Below are positions 2,174 through 46,156 of a stretch of 64,000 nt of DNA, in pieces. The stretch covers positions 27,729 to 91,728 of the forward strand of contig QZJO01000013.1 of NCBI GenBank assembly GCA_003599755.1, written 5' to 3'. Every line of letters begins with the position of its first letter. The stretch's first letter is position 1. A program made the position numbers and the translations under genes. The DNA is from Candidatus Parcubacteria bacterium (GTDB lineage: Bacteria; Patescibacteriota; Minisyncoccia; Sungbacterales; SURF-37). The notes beneath the pieces are model-generated. The model saw only the letters and a program-made list of their open reading frames with translations. It had not been told where the DNA came from and ran no database searches.

Positions 2174-3505
<1,332 letters not shown>

Positions 3506-3520
3506 CCGACGTCCATCCCT

Positions 3521-4792
3521 ATGTTCAAGAAGGTAGCGCTCCCCAACGGTTTACGGATCCTGACCGCACCGATGCAGGGCACCAATACGGTGACCACATT
3601 TGTCATGTGCGGGACCGGCTCGGACCACGAGACCGAACCGCAAAGCGGCATATCGCATTTTTTAGAGCACATGTTTTTCAAAGGCACGACGAAGCGGCCG
3701 AACCACTTGGCGATCACCAAGGAGCTCGACCGCATGGGCTCGGCCTCGAACGCCTTTACGTGGCACGAAACTACGGGATACTACGTGAAGGCCGGCGCCA
3801 TCCATTTTGACCGGGCGATTGATCTTCTGGCCGACATCTACCGGAATTCCCGATTTCCCGAAGAAGAGATGGAAAAGGAAAAGCGGGTGATCATCGAGGA
3901 GCTGCATATGCGGCGGGAAATCCCCACGAGCTATATCTGGCGCCTGTGGGAAAAGACGTTGTACGGCGATTCGCCGGCCGGCCGCGAAGTCGGCGGCACC
4001 GAAGAAACGGTGCAGGCGATTCGGCGTGAGGACTTGGTTAAATACTTCGAAAGTCAGTACGTCGCGCCCAATACCGCAGTCGTAGTTGCGGGCAAAATCG
4101 ACGAGGACGCGGCCGTGCGGCGCGTGGCGGAATTATTCTCCGATATTCGCGCCGGCGCGCCGCATCCGGCGCCCGCGTTTGTGCCGCGGCAGGCCGCACC
4201 CATTCTCATGCCCGAGGCGCGGACGATCGACCAAACGCACACGGTCATCGGTTTCCGGGGGTATGACGCGTTCCATCCGCGGCGCTGGGCCGCCGAGATG
4301 CTCGCGATCGTGCTCGGAGGATCGTGGAGCTCGCGGATGTTCGTGCGCGTGCGCGAGGAGCTCGGGCTCGCGTACACGGTATCGTCGTCGAGTTCGAACT
4401 ATAAGAACCGCGGCTCGTTCGAGACATATGCGGGCGTGAGCCATCACAATCTCGCCAAGGCCATCGAGGCGATCCTGGCCGAATACCGCCGCGTTCGCGA
4501 AGAGCCGATCGCGGCCGAAGAGCTTGCCGATGCACGCGAATTCCTCAAAGGCCGGATGCTTATGGAATGGGAGACCTCCGAGGCGGTCGCGGATCATGCC
4601 GCGGGCGAAGAAATGCTGACCGGCGATCCGTTGACCATCGAGGAAGTATTTGCGAGGATCGATGCAATCAAGCCGGCGGATCTGGCCGACGTTGCCCGAG
4701 ACCTCTTCCGGCCCGACCGCCTCAATGTCGCGATTTTGGGTCCCGAACCGACGTTCGGGGATCCGCAAGCCCTCATCAACCGATTCGCCTGA
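3521..4792 (+). CDS. M16-family zinc peptidase (insulinase-like; HxxEH motif HFLEH)
   Basis: GISHFLEHMFFKGT... is the inverted zinc-binding motif of M16 peptidases. 423 aa. Confidence 0.8.
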   Translation: MFKKVALPNGLRILTAPMQGTNTVTTFVMCGTGSDHETEPQSGISHFLEHMFFKGTTKRPNHLAITKELDRMGSASNAFTWHETTGYYVKAGAIHFDRAIDLLADIYRNSRFPEEEMEKEKRVIIEELHMRREIPTSYIWRLWEKTLYGDSPAGREVGGTEETVQAIRREDLVKYFESQYVAPNTAVVVAGKIDEDAAVRRVAELFSDIRAGAPHPAPAFVPRQAAPILMPEARTIDQTHTVIGFRGYDAFHPRRWAAEMLAIVLGGSWSSRMFVRVREELGLAYTVSSSSSNYKNRGSFETYAGVSHHNLAKAIEAILAEYRRVREEPIAAEELADAREFLKGRMLMEWETSEAVADHAAGEEMLTGDPLTIEEVFARIDAIKPADLADVARDLFRPDRLNVAILGPEPTFGDPQALINRFA

Positions 4793-7464: not shown

Positions 7465-7998
7465 TCAGGTGAATTCGCTGAACCCGGTACCGCGCCAGAG
7501 GACGGATCCCGGCCGCTCGGGTGCGGCATTGAAGCAGCCGGCATACGCCAGAAGCCGTCTGCCATTCGGCTTCTGGAAGAAAACCGGATACGCTCGTTCC
7601 AGCGGTTGGAGCGGTTCGCCGCAGGCGGTACAGCGCGATCGCGCCTCGATGTCGGCCGGAAGGCCTTTTTGGAGCTCGAAGTGCCGCTCGTTGAGACAGG
7701 CGCGGTGGATGAGCACGAGCCGGCCGGTGAGGCGGTCGCGCACGGATGCGATACCGGCTGCAGTATTTCGCACTGTCTTCGCGGGCGAGTGCGCCGGAGT
7801 GGATCCGGGCTTGCCCGGGTCATCGCAGAGCGCTGCGTGACAGATACGGCAGAGCTGATTCGCGCCGTTGGTTCTCGGACTCAAATTGTGCACGATGACG
7901 AGGCCGCGCGCCTCGGCGCACGCGCGGTGCGCGGGAATCCGTGCGGTGCGTGTTGCGTTGAGCGCGAGCACGAGGCGGAACGATCGGCCCATGGGCAT
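7465..7998 (-). CDS. Hypothetical protein with a C-terminal Mut7-C-like zinc-ribbon motif (RCTACGEPL ... SVLWRGTGF); strand assignment uncertain
   Basis: The minus ORF (track 7465..8208) is trimmed to Met at 7998 so it no longer overlaps tatD. The CxxC pairs and YW.G tail resemble the Mut7-C/DUF82 C-terminus. An exactly in-register antisense ORF exists on + (7456..8040), so either strand could be the real gene. Confidence 0.3.
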   Translation of the reverse strand: MPMGRSFRLVLALNATRTARIPAHRACAEARGLVIVHNLSPRTNGANQLCRICHAALCDDPGKPGSTPAHSPAKTVRNTAAGIASVRDRLTGRLVLIHRACLNERHFELQKGLPADIEARSRCTACGEPLQPLERAYPVFFQKPNGRRLLAYAGCFNAAPERPGSVLWRGTGFSEFT

Positions 7999-17767: not shown

Positions 17768-17826
17768 TGGTGCCGAGGGATGGAGTTGAACCCTCACGCC
17801 CTTGCGAGCAACGGATTTTGAGTCCG
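17768..17826 (-). pseudogene. tRNA-Leu(CAA)-like 3' fragment (anticodon arm through CCA); no 5' acceptor strand or D-arm
   Basis: Minus-strand sequence ACGGA-CTCAAAA-TCCGT (anticodon CAA), a long variable arm, GAGGG-TTCAACT-CCATC T-arm (one G.A mismatch), acceptor 3' strand CCTCGGC and an encoded CCA. Only 23 nt lie between it and the intact tRNA, too few for a D-arm and 5' acceptor, and no GCCGAGG partner is present. Confidence 0.5.
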
Positions 17827-17850
17827 TTGTGCCCCGAACTAAATTTTCTG

Positions 17851-17934
17851 TGCCGCGGGAGAGAGTCGAACTCTCATGAGGTTGCCCTCGCTGGATTTTG
17901 AGTCCAGTGCGTCTGCCAGTTCCGCCACCGCGGC
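17851..17934 (-). tRNA. tRNA-Leu (anticodon CAA), type II with long variable arm, 84 nt, CCA not encoded
   Basis: Hand fold: acceptor GCCGCGG/CCGCGGC (perfect), D-arm GCGG-AACTGGCAG-ACGC, anticodon arm CTGGA-CTCAAAA-TCCAG, variable arm CGAGGGCAACCTCATG, T-arm GAGAG-TTCGACT-CTCTC, discriminator A. Confidence 0.8.
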
Positions 17935-31251: not shown

Positions 31252-31284
31252 GACCGCATGGCACGACCCAAAGACAAACCAAAA

Positions 31285-32655
31285 ATGATCCAGCGGCCGC
31301 GCGGCACGCATGATGTTTTGCCGCCGGAGCAACCGATATGGGAAGCGGTCCGGAAAACTATTCGCGAACTTTCCCGTTTCTACGGATTCGAGCGCATCGA
31401 GACGCCGCATTTTGAGATGACGGATCTGTTCACCACGGGCGTCGGCGAAGCGACTGATATCGTGACCAAACAGATGTATTCGTTCAAGACCCGCGGCGGC
31501 GATCAATTGACGCTGCGGCCCGAAGGTACCGCGCCGGTGGCGCGCGCATTTATTGAACACGGCATGATGAACTGGCCGCAGCCGATCAAAGTGTTTTATG
31601 ACGGTTCGTTTTTCCGCCACGAGAACCCGCAGCGCGGCCGATACCGCGAGTTCCACCAGTGGGGACTCGAGGTGCTCGGCGATGACGGAGCGGTAGCGGA
31701 CGCTGAGGTGATCCACGTTTTCACGTTGTTTCTCCGCGAGTGGGGCTTTAAGGATTTCATCGTCGAGGTCAATTCCATCGGCTGCCCGGCATGCCGCGCG
31801 CCGTTCCGCGCGCAGCTTACGCAGTATTACCGGTCCAAGGTTCGGGGGCTTTGCAAGGATTGCAAAGAGCGGTTCAAGGAAAATCCGTTGCGCCTTCTGG
31901 ACTGCACCGAAGAAAAGTGCATGCAGGTCAAGAAAGGCGCGCCGCAGCTTTTGGATAAGCTTTGCGAAGCGTGCCGATCGCACTTCAAATTGCTCCTGGA
32001 ATTCTTGGAAGAGCTGCAGATTCCCTACGCATTGAATCCGCACCTCGTGCGCGGACTCGATTATTATACGCGCACGGTATTCGAGGCCTATGTCGACGAA
32101 CCGATCAAGCCCTCGGCCGAGCCGATTAGTCCCGAAGCGGTCGTCCCGGAAGAAAAATCGGCGGACGAAGAGGCGCCCGCGCCGGTCGAGGCACCGAAGC
32201 TCGAGGACAAATCGCCGCGCCGACTTGCCGTATTCGGAGGCGGCCGCTATGATAACCTCGTTGAATTGGTCGGCGGCAAGTCGACGCCCGCCTGCGGCGG
32301 TGCGCTCGGCTTGGAACGGTTCATCGCGCTCGTGCGCGAGGCGGGCAGGGCGCCGGCCGAAGAAAAGCCGAATGTGTTCTTGGTGCAGCTCGGCGAACTT
32401 GCCAGGAAAAAAAGTTTTCGGATCATGGAGGAGCTCCGCGCCGCGGGCATCACCATGGCCGAATCGCTGGGGCGCGACTCGATTCGTTCGCAACTCAAAG
32501 TCGGTGATCGCGTCGGGGCGCTGTACGCCCTGATTATCGGCCAGAAAGAGGCGCTCGATGAAATGGTGATTCTTCGGGAGATGTCGTCGGGTATCCAGGA
32601 AACCATCCCGCGAAGCCGGCTGGTCGATACCTTGAAACGGAAGCTCAAGACCTAG
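31285..32655 (+). CDS. hisS: Histidine--tRNA ligase with a Cys-rich (4x CxxC) insertion
   Basis: MIQRPRGTHDVLP, motif 2 region LTLRPEGTAPVARAF, and C-terminal anticodon-binding domain. Insertion CPACRAPF…CKDCKERF…CTEEKC…CEACRSHF. The track ORF begins at 31258; the conserved start is MIQRPRGT at 31285. Confidence 0.85.
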   Translation: MIQRPRGTHDVLPPEQPIWEAVRKTIRELSRFYGFERIETPHFEMTDLFTTGVGEATDIVTKQMYSFKTRGGDQLTLRPEGTAPVARAFIEHGMMNWPQPIKVFYDGSFFRHENPQRGRYREFHQWGLEVLGDDGAVADAEVIHVFTLFLREWGFKDFIVEVNSIGCPACRAPFRAQLTQYYRSKVRGLCKDCKERFKENPLRLLDCTEEKCMQVKKGAPQLLDKLCEACRSHFKLLLEFLEELQIPYALNPHLVRGLDYYTRTVFEAYVDEPIKPSAEPISPEAVVPEEKSADEEAPAPVEAPKLEDKSPRRLAVFGGGRYDNLVELVGGKSTPACGGALGLERFIALVREAGRAPAEEKPNVFLVQLGELARKKSFRIMEELRAAGITMAESLGRDSIRSQLKVGDRVGALYALIIGQKEALDEMVILREMSSGIQETIPRSRLVDTLKRKLKT

Positions 32656-32662
32656 GTATGGA

Positions 32663-32775
32663 TCCCGTTAGAGACCGCGGTCGCGGTATATAAATTATGC
32701 GGATGCTGAGAATAGTAATTACTCAGGGTAATCGACGGGCGGGAAACTGTGCGACCGCGCCCTGTCTCTAACGGG
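32663..32775. mobile_element. 113-bp MITE-like palindromic element, copy 1 (TIR CCCGTTAGAGACCGCGGTCGC…GCGACCGCGCCCTGTCTCTAACGGG), flanked by 5-bp direct repeat ATGGA
   Basis: Inserted between the hisS stop and the HIT start codon. Left flank ATGGA|T, right flank ATGGA|C (the HIT ATG). Same length and termini as copies at 57811..57923 and 60054..60166. Confidence 0.7.
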
Positions 32776-33132
32776 ATGGACTGCGTATTCTGCAAAATCG
32801 CGCGCAAAGAAGTGCCGACCGAGGTCGTGGCTGAGGATGCCCAGATTCTGGCCTTCCCCGATCATAAACCCAAGGCCCCGGTTCATATTCTCGTCATCCC
32901 GAAAGAGCACATTCAGTCAATCGCGCATCTGGAAGCGAATCATAACGATGTGATCGCGAAGCTCATCTATACCGCCAAGCACGTCGCCGCCGAAAAAGGA
33001 CTGAAAGGATACAAGCTCGCGTTCAACGTCGGGCGCGCGGGCGGGCAGCTCGTCGATCACCTCCATCTGCACCTCTTGGGCGGATGGGACAAGCCCGAAG
33101 ATTGGAAAAAAGGATTTTTAGGAGATTTGTAA
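32776..33132 (+). CDS. HIT-family (histidine triad) nucleotide hydrolase
   Basis: MDCVFCKIARKEVP…HLHLHLLGG (HxHxHxx triad). Start at ATG 32776, regenerated by the element's target duplication. Confidence 0.85.
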   Translation: MDCVFCKIARKEVPTEVVAEDAQILAFPDHKPKAPVHILVIPKEHIQSIAHLEANHNDVIAKLIYTAKHVAAEKGLKGYKLAFNVGRAGGQLVDHLHLHLLGGWDKPEDWKKGFLGDL

Positions 33133-33147
33133 TCACATATTCATCGC

Positions 33148-33375
33148 ATGGTCTACGTCAAACGAAAAGAACGCGAAACGACCGCCTCAATGCTTCGTCG
33201 CTTCACGCGGCGCGTGCAGCAATCGGGCGTGCTGTTGCGCGCGCGCAAGGGTCGCTTCTTCGTGCCCAAGCCCAGCCGCCGCGCCGTGCGCGAGCGGGCG
33301 TTGCGCCGCATCCAAGTTCAAAAGGAGCGCACGAAGCTCGTGAAGCTCGGCAAATTGCATGAACTCGACCGCTAG
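33148..33375 (+). CDS. rpsU: 30S ribosomal protein S21
   Basis: MVYVKRKERETTASMLRRFTRRVQQSGVLLRARKGRFFVPKPSRRAVRER… 75-aa basic protein with the bS21 pattern. Confidence 0.8.
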   Translation: MVYVKRKERETTASMLRRFTRRVQQSGVLLRARKGRFFVPKPSRRAVRERALRRIQVQKERTKLVKLGKLHELDR

Positions 33376-45916: not shown

Positions 45917-45931
45917 GTTTGCTTCGCTCAG

Positions 45932-45960
45932 TCGGGCTGCTGGGAATCGAACCCAGTCTA
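45932..45960 (-). pseudogene. tRNA 3' piece (variable loop, T-arm CTGGG-TTCGATT-CCCAG, acceptor 3' strand CAGCCCG, discriminator A) lacking any local 5' partner
   Basis: Hand fold. No sequence able to pair with CAGCCCG exists in the 100 nt upstream on the RNA. The only perfect partner (CGGGCTG) is 230 nt away at 46190..46196. Confidence 0.5.
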
Positions 45961-46085
45961 CGAGTTCCAGGGTGTAGTGTTGCGAGCGTATCCGCTGCGC
46001 GGATTCGTTCTCGCAACACCCGCGCAAACCAAAGACCTTTGCTTTGCGCCCCCTCGCCTCGCTTGCCCCGCACCAATTTCGGCAG

Positions 46086-46156
46086 TCGGGGCGCCGGGAA
46101 TCGAACCCGGTCTACAAGACCCCCAGCCTTGTGTACTGCCGTTATACTACGCCCCG
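46086..46156 (-). tRNA. tRNA-Pro (anticodon GGG), 71 nt, CCA not encoded
   Basis: Hand fold: acceptor CGGGGCG/CGCCCCG, D-arm GTAT-AACGGCA-GTAC, anticodon arm CAAGG-CTGGGGG-TCTTG (G37), variable TAGA, T-arm CCGGG-TTCGATT-CCCGG, discriminator A. Confidence 0.75.

Follow-up and report, generated by a model that had tools for sequence, protein, structure and literature searches.

Between hisS and the HIT-family gene of this Parcubacteria contig lies a palindromic insert of 113 bp, which raises the question of what kind of DNA it is and why it ends directly at a start codon. To answer this, we analyzed the whole stretch of 64 kb (the window) together with loci that carry the same termini. The insert is a decayed, gene-less copy of a mobile element of ~283 bp that is widespread in ultra-small (CPR) bacteria. 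For the explanation as a whole, namely that this copy (copy 1) is a MITE of a tiny CPR/Patescibacteria mobile element with a GIY-YIG ORF as parent and insertion at start codons, we estimate a probability of about 80 %.

All features of the locus are located on the + strand. The upstream host gene hisS (histidyl-tRNA synthetase, ORF at 31258..32655) ends with the stop codon TAG at 32653-32655, which is followed by GT, ATGGA (32658-32662), the element (32663-32775) and a second ATGGA (32776-32780). The sequence is exactly as an earlier note on this DNA had described the 113-bp palindromic insert and its hisS and HIT flanks. The targeted start codon belongs to the HIT-family (histidine triad) gene at 32776..33132 (ORF, Pfam PF01230), a host gene with a product that matches P0001, 'HIT domain-containing protein [Candidatus Parcubacteria bacterium]', at 100 % identity.

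The terminal 12-mers of copy 1, CCCGTTAGAGAC and GTCTCTAACGGG, are perfect inverted repeats. Seen from hisS, the A of the original start codon (A32658) is followed by the left target-site duplication TGGA (4 bp, 32659..32662), the left (gene-distal) 13-bp terminal inverted repeat TCCCGTTAGAGAC (32663..32675), which codes for (N)PVRD in intact elements, and the 5' half of a second stem, CGCGGTCGC (32676..32684). The latter pairs with the 3' half GCGACCGCG (32751..32759), as indicated by the fold and by family covariation. Between both halves lies the decayed interior (32685..32750), which now contains stop codons and in which the second, C-terminal half of the GIY-YIG coding sequence is still weakly recognisable. 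The polarity of the element comes from an unpaired 4-nt bulge, CCCT (32760..32763), by which the gene-proximal end can be told. The right (gene-proximal) 13-bp terminal inverted repeat GTCTCTAACGGGA (32764..32776) codes for SLTG in intact elements, where the next two bases complete a TGA stop; the HIT start codon begins with its final base, A32776, so that the element terminus supplies the A of the right-hand ATG. The right target-site duplication TGGA (4 bp) follows at 32777..32780. As RNA, copy 1 folds with -57 kcal/mol (z = -5.9 for the + strand, -6.1 for the - strand), and the fold ends at the AUG. The frame that opens at the left ATG stops after 11 codons (remnant uORF MDPVRDRGRGI*, 32658..32693, read from the sequence), and the 114-bp element is without an intact ORF.

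Two syntenic relatives (loci L120 and L121) lack the element, and in both the HIT start comes directly after hisS. Their gene order is pth-lepB-hisS-HIT-(S21)-yqeY-ybeY-ftsA-ftsZ, the Pfam family tRNA-synt_His was detected at the hisS position of each, and their HIT proteins are 80 % and 77 % identical to that of the window. The empty junction of L121 is ATGGATTGC (...GGAAAT ATGGA TTGC). The existence of two syntenic relatives without the element identifies it as an insertion. HIT homologues (115-118 aa) begin with MDC or MTDC at the same position. These N-termini and the two element-free relatives agree with the start at the right-hand ATG that the earlier note had assigned, and the homologues do not start upstream of the element, a case which it had considered as well. 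Its description as dispersed and MITE-like likewise holds for this non-autonomous insertion with terminal inverted repeats and target duplication, of which the window contains three copies. As in prokaryotic MITEs, copy 1 is short (under ~300 bp) and free of an intact ORF, has inverted repeats and a duplication, is dispersed, shows presence and absence, and has a longer coding partner, whose product is a nuclease rather than any known transposase.

Both sister copies lie on the + strand. Copy 2 (57811..57924) is inserted between rpmC (L29) and rpsQ (S17, start at 57924) with the duplication TGAG; the left ATGA contains the rpmC stop TGA (57807-57809), and two transitions are present in the left arm (CCCATCAGAGAC). 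Copy 3 (60054..60167), again with the duplication TGAG, separates rpsH (S8, ending at 60039) from rplF (L6, start at 60167). Copies 1 and 2 share 76 % identity over their entire length, and a comparison of copy 1 with copies 2 and 3, as suggested earlier, revealed the same length of 113/114 bp and the same architecture in all three. With up to two mismatches allowed, the 12-mer occurs 8 times in the window versus 3.0 expected, a number reached in 0 of 100 shuffles; six of the eight matches are the ends of the three elements, with the 12-mer starts 100 nt apart in each.

Rfam 15 gave no match over the window at gathering scores and none for 32560-32880 at E-values up to 10; for one class-B copy, only chance-level snoRNA and sRNA matches were obtained. 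A consensus scan of the three window copies detected no promoter-like or terminator-like site, apart from one weak terminator-like palindrome inside copy 3 (60136-60149) that is at chance frequency. TATAAT-like boxes were seen by eye in some AT-rich copies of the family, but an outward promoter within the element was rejected.

The longer partner and its GIY-YIG reading frame

An intact GIY-YIG copy was not found in the 64-kb window by tblastn. It is present at positions 7513-7794 of another locus (L088), where the same termini as in the short copies enclose one ORF with a GIY-YIG domain (Pfam PF01541, E = 1.8e-16). In full-length copies, 275 bp lie between the 12-mers and the single ORF reads MNPVRD…RFLSLTG*; the element measures ~283 bp from the left ATG to the TGA stop and comprises 94 codons. 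This ORF begins with the left duplicated ATG and ends in a TGA that overlaps the ATG of the host gene. The arrangement ATGAAT-CCCG…CGGG-ATGAA, followed by an ORF of 50 codons or more whose ATG is overlapped by the TGA stop, was observed at ~45-50 of the 78 metagenome loci with the terminal pair. A protein search returned 3540 homologues, and the best 120 of these 3540 are mostly exactly 94 aa long, with MNPVRD as start and RFLSLTG as end.

The relationship between long and short copies is visible on contig NZBZ01000020.1, which carries an intact copy, with a stop overlapping the start of the next gene by 4 nt, and two MITEs, each alignable to it if a deletion of ~153 nt is allowed for. In the window, the remnant uORF of copy 1 is homologous to the MNPVRD N-terminus of the full-length ORF (MNPVRD, MSPVRD or MDPVRD within the family). 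Judged by such sequence comparisons, the window copies are deletion derivatives of the GIY-YIG ORF element. For the interior, nhmmer with a full-length profile aligned profile positions 180-281 to element positions 26-112 of copy 1 with E = 0.01, a weak homology to the ORF that counts against derivation.

According to Pfam, the parent protein (94 aa) consists of a GIY-YIG domain only and no other domain. Five residues are invariant in the protein alignment (Y13, Y24, R34, E58 and N84), which we take to be the usual GIY-YIG catalytic positions by motif reading, not by structure mapping, and the protein looks active. An AlphaFold model of a database homologue (pLDDT 86) comprises the GIY-YIG core only, with low confidence for residues 1-9 and 91-94, the tails encoded by the repeats. 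Among solved structures, UPF0213 BH0048 and the structure-specific nuclease Slx1 come closest; the closest solved relatives are the UPF0213 proteins 1zg2 and 1ywl, and the catalytic domain of I-TevI is a distant structural match.

Ends, target site and orientation of the family

The family scan, for which the two terminal 12-mers had to lie 73-103 nt apart, matched at least 119 stretches in many CPR classes and in MAGs of Omnitrophota, Elusimicrobiota, Pirellulales and Phycisphaerae. The element is not private to the lineage of the window: numerous CPR classes share its conserved termini, as do some MAGs of Omnitrophota, Planctomycetota and Elusimicrobiota. Just outside the 12-mers, the two bases are complementary in 99 of 102 copies (T/A 82, C/G 17), from which it follows that the inverted repeat extends over 13 bp and that the true target duplication is 4 bp long. 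The same 4-mer stands on both sides in 68 of the 102 copies (TGAA 39, TGGA 10, TGAG 8). The consensus of the duplication is TGRR, and the 13-bp repeat ends in R, the first base of the host start codon. In six cases of G-terminated elements, the host start is GTG and the left copy is still ATG.

Short copies are strictly oriented, with one end at host start codons. In 88 of 104 orientable copies, from more than 100 genomes, the bulge-bearing end is immediately followed by ATG or GTG, and an ORF of at least 50 codons opens at this end in 77 of 104 copies but at the other end in only 3 of 104. The start-codon bias could partly result from survival and not from targeting; of the ATGAA pentamers left unoccupied in the loci, 219 are located at predicted starts, 354 in crudely defined 'intergenic' DNA and 1978 inside genes.

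These family data correct the earlier note in several respects. What it had read as a duplicated pentamer is a duplication of 4 bp (TGGA), and the fifth base belongs to the 13-bp repeat. The left ATGGAT, which it regarded as the start of nothing, contains the ATG that serves in the family as start codon of the element's own ORF; this left ATG also keeps the original upstream context of the host gene, contrary to the view that the original start codon does not lie on the left. The interpretation as a MITE-like insertion stands, whereas the orientation, the start-codon specificity and the origin from a GIY-YIG element rather than a classical IS had been missed.

Constraint on the ends is evident at the nucleotide level. 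In codons 3-5 and 91-93, conservation of synonymous third positions reaches 100 %, and in codon 94 it reaches 97 %, compared to 0.3-0.8 elsewhere; this constraint on the repeat-encoding codons indicates that the termini have a function in cis. Between the two terminal repeats, inner positions covary (GAGAC/GTCTC, GAGAT/ATCTC, GAGAA/TTCTC, GAGCC/GGCTC). The second stem is a perfect complement in 54 of 104 MITEs and in 66-70 of 78 full copies, in many sequence variants, versus ~1 in controls. A functional strand could not be read from G-T versus A-C stem mismatches, which number only 5 in 104 short and 7 in 78 full copies.

Short copies also occur in tandem and nested, with a tandem junction reading GTCTCTAACGGG-ATGAAT-CCCGTTAGAGAC, and near-identical short copies stand before different genes (L053, L070). 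The equal length and architecture of the three window copies, together with the L053 and L070 copies, argue against the idea that full copies decaying in place are the only source of short ones.

Possible movers and competing explanations

Based on this architecture, we propose that the parent element integrates between the A and the TGRR of a host start codon, in one orientation and with duplication of TGRR. The 13-bp inverted repeats double as coding sequence of the N-terminal (PVRD) and C-terminal (SLTG) tails. After insertion, the original ATG and upstream context of the host gene would drive the nuclease ORF, and the last base of the element (A or G) rebuilds a host start codon with the duplicated TG. 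Since the rebuilt start overlaps the nuclease stop (ATGA), the host gene could be translated by coupling. In the lineage of the window, a derivative without most of the ORF, which kept both termini as well as the second stem and bulge next to the proximal terminus, inserted at the HIT, S17 and L6 starts. We infer that the mobilising chemistry is carried out by the GIY-YIG protein, which would act in trans and cut the base of the folded, probably single-stranded, ends and the target, and host functions would complete the joining. GIY-YIG nucleases hydrolyse DNA, and strand transfer is not known for them, so that the GIY-YIG reading does not account for the 4-bp duplication.

With regard to expression of copy 1, ribosomes ending hisS may re-start at the left AUG, and reading of the 11-codon uORF may melt the 5' arm of the stem so that the HIT AUG is exposed. 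Across the family, the uORF through the MITE reaches the terminal stop in 15 of 57 cases versus ~5 expected from shuffles (~three-fold); as it is only 15 of 57, coupling by read-through is not general. A Shine-Dalgarno motif supplied by the element was rejected, since such motifs are rare in the element-bearing genomes overall (11 % of control starts).

It is conceivable that the ~283-bp ORF-only element is an autonomous transposon of an undescribed class, consisting of a bare GIY-YIG nuclease that acts on folded single-stranded ends with the first codon as target; we put this forward tentatively and at clearly less than even odds. An excised hairpin or circle junction would read GTCTCTAACGGGR-TGAA-YCCCGTTAGAGAC, outside tandem copies.

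Among the competing explanations, the one that survives best, although it is improbable, is a classical MITE of a DDE-transposase IS (IS1380/piggyBac-like, with CCC…GGG termini) that is moved by a transposase encoded elsewhere, the GIY-YIG ORF being cargo or a coincidental match. Terminal inverted repeats, a 4-bp duplication and dispersed, tandem and nested copies would all be expected of such a MITE, and CCC termini with a duplication of 4-5 bp resemble IS1380 and piggyBac in the ISfinder family tables. However, these termini enclose no transposase in ~860 kb around 119 listed copies, nor in the window, and the sole longer version, the 275-bp ORF, is GIY-YIG throughout. Fixed polarity and a covarying hairpin are untypical of DDE ends, and the termini correspond to conserved N- and C-terminal codons of thousands of GIY-YIG proteins. 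A piggyBac/IS1380-like DDE parent was rejected as a candidate, as no such gene lies between YCCCGTTAGARAC termini in these loci and the window.

Even less probable is a REP/REPIN-like element, the hairpin of which is recognised and moved by a domesticated HUH tyrosine transposase (RAYT/IS200-like). The covarying hairpin and the one-orientation insertion beside a 4-5-nt target are reminiscent of IS200/IS605, and 5 of 119 listed loci contain a gene for a RAYT-like protein (motif MPNHFHLV), but the distance from these genes to the elements is several kilobases, no elements flank them, and the window has none. IS200/IS605 and RAYT systems have neither target duplication nor terminal inverted repeats; the element has both, and its left and right 4-mers co-vary in 68 of 102 copies. 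The GIY-YIG coding nature of the termini would also be left unexplained. An unlinked enzyme, such as the RAYT-like HUH protein in 5 of the 119 listed loci, is a possible mover in place of the GIY-YIG protein.

We give equally little credence to a conserved cis-regulatory 5'-leader RNA (attenuator, RNase III site or start-codon presenter) instead of mobile DNA. The element is absent from close syntenic relatives, is enclosed by duplicated first codons of its host gene (same 4-mer in 68 of 102 copies), stands before unrelated genes with an unconserved interior and in tandem and nested copies, has no Rfam match even at E = 10 and derives from a protein-coding gene. These observations outweigh the very stable fold ending at the AUG (-57 kcal/mol, z = -5.9), the covarying stems, the polarity fixed relative to the gene and the ~three-fold enrichment of uORFs ending exactly at the host start, all of which a leader RNA would account for. 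A secondary regulatory effect of the element on hisS-HIT expression is possible. Three recombination sites were rejected: an integron attC site (core order 5'-GTTAGAG … CTCTAAC-3', the reverse of 5'-RYYYAAC … GTTRRRY-3', on both strands) and, both suggested by the tandem junctions, a lox/dif-like 12-6-12 tyrosine-recombinase site (no recombinase gene recurs near the copies) and a 12-4-12 serine-recombinase site (no recurrent recombinase gene, and a serine enzyme would duplicate only 2 bp).

Related systems and meaning for compact genomes

In the literature searched (GIY-YIG with MITEs, start codons and CPR/Patescibacteria), the start-codon architecture of a GIY-YIG element is not described, and a full-text search for the terminal 12-mers yielded unrelated papers only. 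The closest described system is that of the Ssn GIY-YIG single-strand nucleases (cd10448) with their hairpin repeats. Ssn is a 94-aa single-domain GIY-YIG family that cuts single-stranded DNA beside hairpin repeats (NTS/SRM), which flank the ssn gene and are dispersed in hundreds of copies; the authors noted that the repeat-gene-repeat layout resembles an insertion sequence (Chenal et al., Nat Commun 2025, PMC11893778). The CPR element shares with Ssn the ~94-aa GIY-YIG protein without extra domain, the gene bracketed by hairpin repeats and the dispersed gene-less copies. Unlike the Ssn repeats, which lie outside the gene, those of the CPR element are inside the ORF as its first and last codons and form one long terminal stem plus a second stem. 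The 4-bp duplication, start-codon sites, single orientation and stop/start overlap onto the host gene further distinguish it from Ssn. Its repeat is unrelated to the NTS (CGTCATTCCCGCG…), and no resemblance to the SRM/NTS consensus CGTCATTCCCGCGMAVGCGGGAATCYRG was seen by eye in the termini YCCCGTTAGARAC and the variable second stem. The terms 'start codon', 'MITE' and 'Patescibacteria' are absent from the text of PMC11893778.

In size, repeats, duplication, intergenic operon position and long hairpin, the window element is similar to the Correia/NEMIS (Neisseria), ERIC/IRU (enterobacteria) and RUP (pneumococcus) elements. These are 100-150 bp long with inverted repeats, a short duplication, many operon copies and a hairpin in the mRNA; they occupy TA-type sites regardless of start codons and in both orientations, and their assumed parents are DDE insertion sequences. 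We know of none that rebuilds a start codon or derives from an element-filling nuclease gene. Recognition of a hairpin instead of a sequence, oriented insertion beside a 4-5-nt target and one enzyme gene with many gene-less repeats are likewise found in REP/REPIN-RAYT and in the 'peel and paste' of IS200/IS605; there, however, the enzyme is a HUH tyrosine enzyme, whereas the ORF of the CPR element is GIY-YIG and RAYT-like genes are unlinked. Free-standing GIY-YIG homing endonucleases (phage T4 seg genes, I-TevI) are also selfish GIY-YIG genes between host genes. They have a separate DNA-binding domain, address one cognate site via recombination and show neither inverted repeats nor duplication; the CPR protein, in contrast, is a bare 94-aa catalytic domain before many unrelated genes. 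Rickettsia palindromic elements (RPE) enter ORFs in frame and are incorporated into the protein. Both are short palindromic mobile elements that spare the genes of a compact genome by respecting the reading frame, but the CPR element uses the first codon as its insertion site and returns a start codon to the host gene.

If the proposed mobilisation holds, the annotation of CPR MAGs is affected as well: between essential genes (hisS-HIT, L29-S17, S8-L6), these elements and their decayed copies produce false short ORFs, move start calls from ATG to GTG and disrupt the stop/start overlaps that serve translational coupling. A very large family of small proteins, which so far go only by the annotations 'GIY-YIG nuclease family protein' and 'excinuclease ABC subunit C', would then gain a testable role in mobility and be tied to the Ssn single-strand nucleases. 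An enzyme of 94 aa whose hairpin-plus-TGAA substrate is defined would also make an attractive tool. If the ~283-bp element is indeed an autonomous transposon, it would borrow promoter, ribosome entry site and ATG from the host and pass the ribosomes on via the ATGA overlap, and Ssn-type nucleases would be, or would have been, transposases. The smallest IS measure ~600-700 bp, and by comparison with these sizes it would then be the smallest autonomous mobile element known in cellular genomes. More generally, the proposed mobilisation would reveal the way of life of a selfish element in genomes with almost no intergenic space: without expression signals of its own, it would land on a start codon, use it and rebuild it for the host.

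The element between hisS and the HIT gene

The hisS stop codon TAG (32653-32655, + strand) is followed by GT and a left ATGGA (32658-32662, read from the sequence). Copy 1, a palindromic element of 113 bp (32663-32775, + strand), starts with TCCCGTTAGAGAC, ends with GTCTCTAACGGG and is followed by a right ATGGA (32776-32780), which opens a histidine triad (HIT) ORF of 118 codons. This layout, read directly, is the one described in the earlier note. Two sister elements lie in the same orientation, copy 2 (57811-57923) between L29 and S17 and copy 3 (60054-60166) between S8 and L6. With up to two mismatches, the 12-mer CCCGTTAGAGAC occurred eight times in the window against 3.0 expected, a number reached in 0 of 100 shuffles, and six of these matches are the two ends of the three elements. 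The 12-mer starts are exactly 100 nt apart in each copy, and the flanking pentamers (ATGGA, ATGAG and ATGAG for copies 1 to 3) all begin with ATG. Copies 1 and 2 share 76% identity over their whole length. The predicted transcript fold of copy 1 is a stem of ~24 bp with a 4-nt bulge (-57 kcal/mol; z = -5.9 for the plus and -6.1 for the minus strand). Anecdotally, two substitutions in the left arm of copy 2 (57807-57928; CCCATCAGAGAC) form G-U pairs only in the minus-strand transcript and are A-C mismatches in the plus strand, with a weaker fold (z = -2.3 vs -4.5).

The HIT protein of the window is identical to a database protein from "Candidatus Parcubacteria bacterium". For comparison, we used the loci of the two closest relatives with usable contigs, L120 and L121 (HIT identity 80% and 77%), which have the same gene order as the window (pth, lepB, hisS, HIT, yqeY, ybeY, ftsA, ftsZ). 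Both are free of the element at the hisS-HIT junction, and the 12-mer was absent from both loci. The hisS stop and the HIT start share bases in L120 (ATGA), and the junction in L121 reads GGAAAT-ATGGA-TTGC. Copy 1 is an insertion, and the dispersed, MITE-like insertion proposed from the sequence alone is borne out by the three window copies and the relatives' empty sites. HIT homologues start at the same residue (MDC/MTDC) and not upstream of the element; the proposal therefore withstands the refutation test named with it.

Ribosomal protein S21 is encoded between HIT and yqeY in the window (33148-33375) and in L120, and L121 has ~380 nt without a called gene there (3355-3737), perhaps because a small gene was missed or the region was rearranged locally. 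Elsewhere in the window, two partial duplicates of tRNA 3' portions on the minus strand, one (17768-17835) just downstream of tRNA-Leu(CAA) (17850-17934) and one (45929-45964) ~120 nt downstream of tRNA-Pro(GGG) (46085-46156), resemble either att-site scars left by integrated elements or tRNA copies that have decayed. A tRNA-Val(TAC) of 90 nt called by ARAGORN (1397-1486) scored below the gathering threshold of the Rfam tRNA model and is probably a false positive.

Anatomy and spread of the short copies

A scan of one genome for each species, for pairs of the 12-mers spaced 73-103 nt, returned at least 119 stretches. Among the matches listed, CPR sources comprised Saccharibacteria, Nomura-, Wolfe-, Kaiser-, Yanofsky-, Berkel- and Doudnabacteria and many other groups, together with a few MAGs from outside the CPR (Omnitrophota, Elusimicrobiota, Pirellulales, Phycisphaerae). 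Identical termini across phyla are not the behaviour of a lineage-private MITE, and we therefore examined the anatomy of all 128 copies from the matches listed.

The base outside the 12-mers is complementary end to end in 99 of 102 copies (T/A 82, C/G 17), and the inverted repeat is therefore YCCCGTTAGARAC, 13 bp. The target duplication measures 4 bp and not the five that the earlier note had counted: the same flanking 4-mer stands on both sides in 68 of 102 copies (TGAA 39, TGGA 10, TGAG 8). Beside G-ended termini the host start is GTG while the left copy is still ATG (6 cases), so the host start codon takes its first base from the end of the element. The target logo reads A-T-G-A-A. The elements are polar. 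One end has 2-4 unpaired bases inside its terminus, behind which lies the 3' arm of a second stem. The partner arm adjoins the other terminus in class A, to which the window copies belong, and lies a few bases off in class B, forming a local hairpin. Of 104 orientable copies, 88 have ATG or GTG directly at the bulge-bearing end, and this codon opens an ORF of at least 50 codons in 77/104, against 3/104 at the opposite end. Tandem and nested copies were present in three loci (L017, L070, L107). In an Omnitrophota MAG (L034, 6125-6230), two tandem units of ~50 nt with the same terminal 12-mers (CCCGTTAGAAAC…GTTTCTAACGGG; spacer GTGAAC) represent a still shorter derivative outside the CPR.

A GIY-YIG nuclease gene as parent of the short copies

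A search for longer elements yielded a 275-bp version with the same termini in the database locus L088. One ORF fills it from end to end (ATG AAT CCC GTT AGA GAC … CTG TCT CTA ACG GGA TGA): its ATG is the left duplicated start codon, its TGA shares bases with the ATG of the host gene that follows, and its 94-aa product matches Pfam GIY-YIG (E = 1.8e-16). A protein search found 3540 relatives; nearly all of the best 120 are exactly 94 aa long, start with MNPVRD and end with RFLSLTG. Their source annotations go no further than "GIY-YIG nuclease family protein", "putative endonuclease" or "excinuclease ABC subunit C". Scanning metagenomes with the protein alignment gave at least 534 loci, of which 80 were kept. 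The terminal pair is present in 78 of these, and about 45-50 of the 78 have the canonical form ATGAAT/CCCG…CGGG/ATGAA (slashes mark the element's borders), followed by an ORF of 50 codons or more. It follows that the terminal repeats noticed in the window elements are the opening and closing codons of a nuclease gene.

The invariant residues of the alignment include Y13, Y24, R34, E58 and N84, which, from our reading of the motif, we take to be the positions of the usual GIY-YIG catalytic residues. The AlphaFold model (pLDDT 86) is a bare GIY-YIG core with the repeat-encoded residues 1-9 and 91-94 as low-confidence tails; among solved structures, UPF0213 protein BH0048 and the structure-specific nuclease Slx1 come closest, followed by HIGLE, UvrC and I-TevI.

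Other arrangements were also seen. Some full-length copies (L154, L157, L160, L161, L167, L179, L189 and others) have C/G termini and palindromic outer flanks (e.g. TTAC/CCCG…CGGG/GTAA; TTGGAC/…/GTAAAG), do not lie at start codons and in several cases are frameshifted at the 3' end (…GSYL*RG); they may form a sub-family whose inverted repeats are longer or whose target differs. In L079 (2130-2440, minus strand) a small GIY-YIG gene of another kind (MFFVYVLKSQKD…) occupies a mini-element of its own with inverted repeats of ~19 bp (CCCCTCACTTGGAAAGGAT) and an 11-bp direct repeat, GGGGCGGTTAG. This direct repeat is the 5' end of the tRNA-like gene immediately downstream, by eye probably tRNA-Val (TAC), and the mini-element appears to be a sister family targeting and rebuilding the first bases of a tRNA gene. 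L071 and L003 hold further GIY-YIG minigenes with flanking repeats of their own.

In intact copies, synonymous third positions are 100% conserved in codons 3-5 (CCC GTT AGA) and 91-93 (TCT CTA ACG) and 97% in codon 94 (GGA), compared with 0.3-0.8 elsewhere. The innermost positions of the terminal repeats co-vary (GAGAC/GTCTC, GAGAT/ATCTC, GAGAA/TTCTC, GAGCC/GGCTC, GAGGC/GCCTC). A perfect upstream complement to the 7 nt adjoining the proximal terminus was present in 54/104 short copies, comprising 20 sequence variants, and in 66-70 of the 78 full copies, comprising 6-8, with ~1 in shuffled controls. What is conserved is thus a fold of two stems and a small 3' bulge rather than the sequence, and the element ends are cis-acting sites; stem mismatches are too few to show which strand matters.

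Class-B short copies align to a profile built from 33 intact copies at positions 7 to ~100 and ~255-281, and the missing part is bounded by two occurrences of the palindromic AAGCGCTTC, K-R-F being encoded twice. Deletion of that part leaves the palindrome GGAAGCGCTTCC, which became the class-B hairpin. The best single demonstration that short copies are deletion derivatives is contig NZBZ01000020.1 with one intact and two short copies. The downstream gene of the intact copy starts 4 nt before the ORF end; the short copies have their first 30 nt (ATGAATCCCGTTAGAGACAGCCAA) in common with it and align otherwise except for a gap of ~153 nt. For copy 1, of class A, the match to the profile is weak (E = 0.01) and covers its final 100 nt, the C-terminal half of the ORF, which now contains stop codons. 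Given their common length and architecture and the identity between copies 1 and 2, the window copies have therefore spread as short copies instead of decaying in place three times. With a probability of roughly 0.8, copy 1 is a mobile deletion derivative of a start-codon-targeting GIY-YIG element.

Insertion sites, mobilisation and expression

The element inserts at A/TGRR of a start codon, in one orientation and with a 4-bp duplication; the nuclease ORF spans from the host's original ATG to a TGA overlapping the rebuilt host start, and gene-less derivatives retain the two-stem ends and behave as the intact element does. Unoccupied ATGAA in the loci numbered 219 at predicted starts, 354 in crude "intergenic" regions and 1978 inside genes. 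If only intragenic insertions were purged, ~38% of the surviving copies would be expected at starts, an estimate from rough ORF calling with short genes counted as intergenic, and ~85% were observed. For intact copies, which are expressed at no other site, selection on the element would favour start codons; that short copies share site and orientation argues, tentatively, for mechanistic targeting.

Which enzyme mobilises the family was weighed against other systems. RAYT-like genes, encoding the HUH tyrosine transposases linked to REP repeats, occur in 5 of 119 CPR loci among the matches listed, as RAYT/IS200-like ORFs with the motif MPNH[FWY]HL[VLI] (L006 7567-7998; L031 5791-6465; L045 2796-3527; L081 958-1677; L093 2165-2899). 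They are kilobases from the elements and unlinked to them, and we know of no target duplication in RAYT/REP systems. Descent of the MITE from a DDE transposon is opposed by ~860 kb around the copies listed, in which no transposase lies between these termini. A leader RNA is contradicted by the empty sites in relatives, the duplications, the unconserved interior, the coding origin and the lack of any Rfam match. Readings as attC-like or lox-like sites were also considered and dropped.

We lean modestly towards the GIY-YIG protein itself as the mobilising enzyme. Ssn, likewise a 94-aa GIY-YIG protein, cuts only single-stranded DNA, beside the hairpin repeats flanking its own gene (PMC11893778). 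The nuclease would recognise the folded ends and cut at the stem base and the target, most likely on single-stranded DNA as Ssn does, and joining would be completed by host repair or replication. We found nothing that accounts for a route from a hydrolytic GIY-YIG enzyme to a 4-bp duplication.

The element would need no promoter or ribosome-binding site of its own because those of the host gene would be taken over; Shine-Dalgarno motifs are rare in these genomes (11% of control starts). At copy 1, ribosomes ending hisS at 32655 may restart at 32658 and read an 11-codon uORF through the 5' stem arm; the HIT AUG, which the predicted fold otherwise ties up through its A and U, would thereby become accessible. 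The terminal sequence TCTAACGGGATGA places stops in two frames beside the host ATG. uORFs reaching these stops are about three times commoner than in shuffles (15/57 vs ~5) and are not the rule.

In full-text literature searches with the 12-mers and with combinations of GIY-YIG, MITE, start codon and CPR, we found no description of the element. The protein family is already annotated but uncharacterised, and the known kinds here are the small GIY-YIG nuclease with hairpin repeats and the MITE. The Ssn paper reports on related nucleases bracketed by hairpin repeats and likens the layout to an insertion sequence; "start codon", "MITE" and "Patescibacteria" do not occur in its text (PMC11893778). 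A GIY-YIG protein appears in one paper's list of genes that other bacteria received from Patescibacteria, which fits the scattered non-CPR matches. The observation at copy 1 is real and amounts to considerably more than the earlier note proposed, and the parent may, with appreciable probability, be an autonomous element of a new class.
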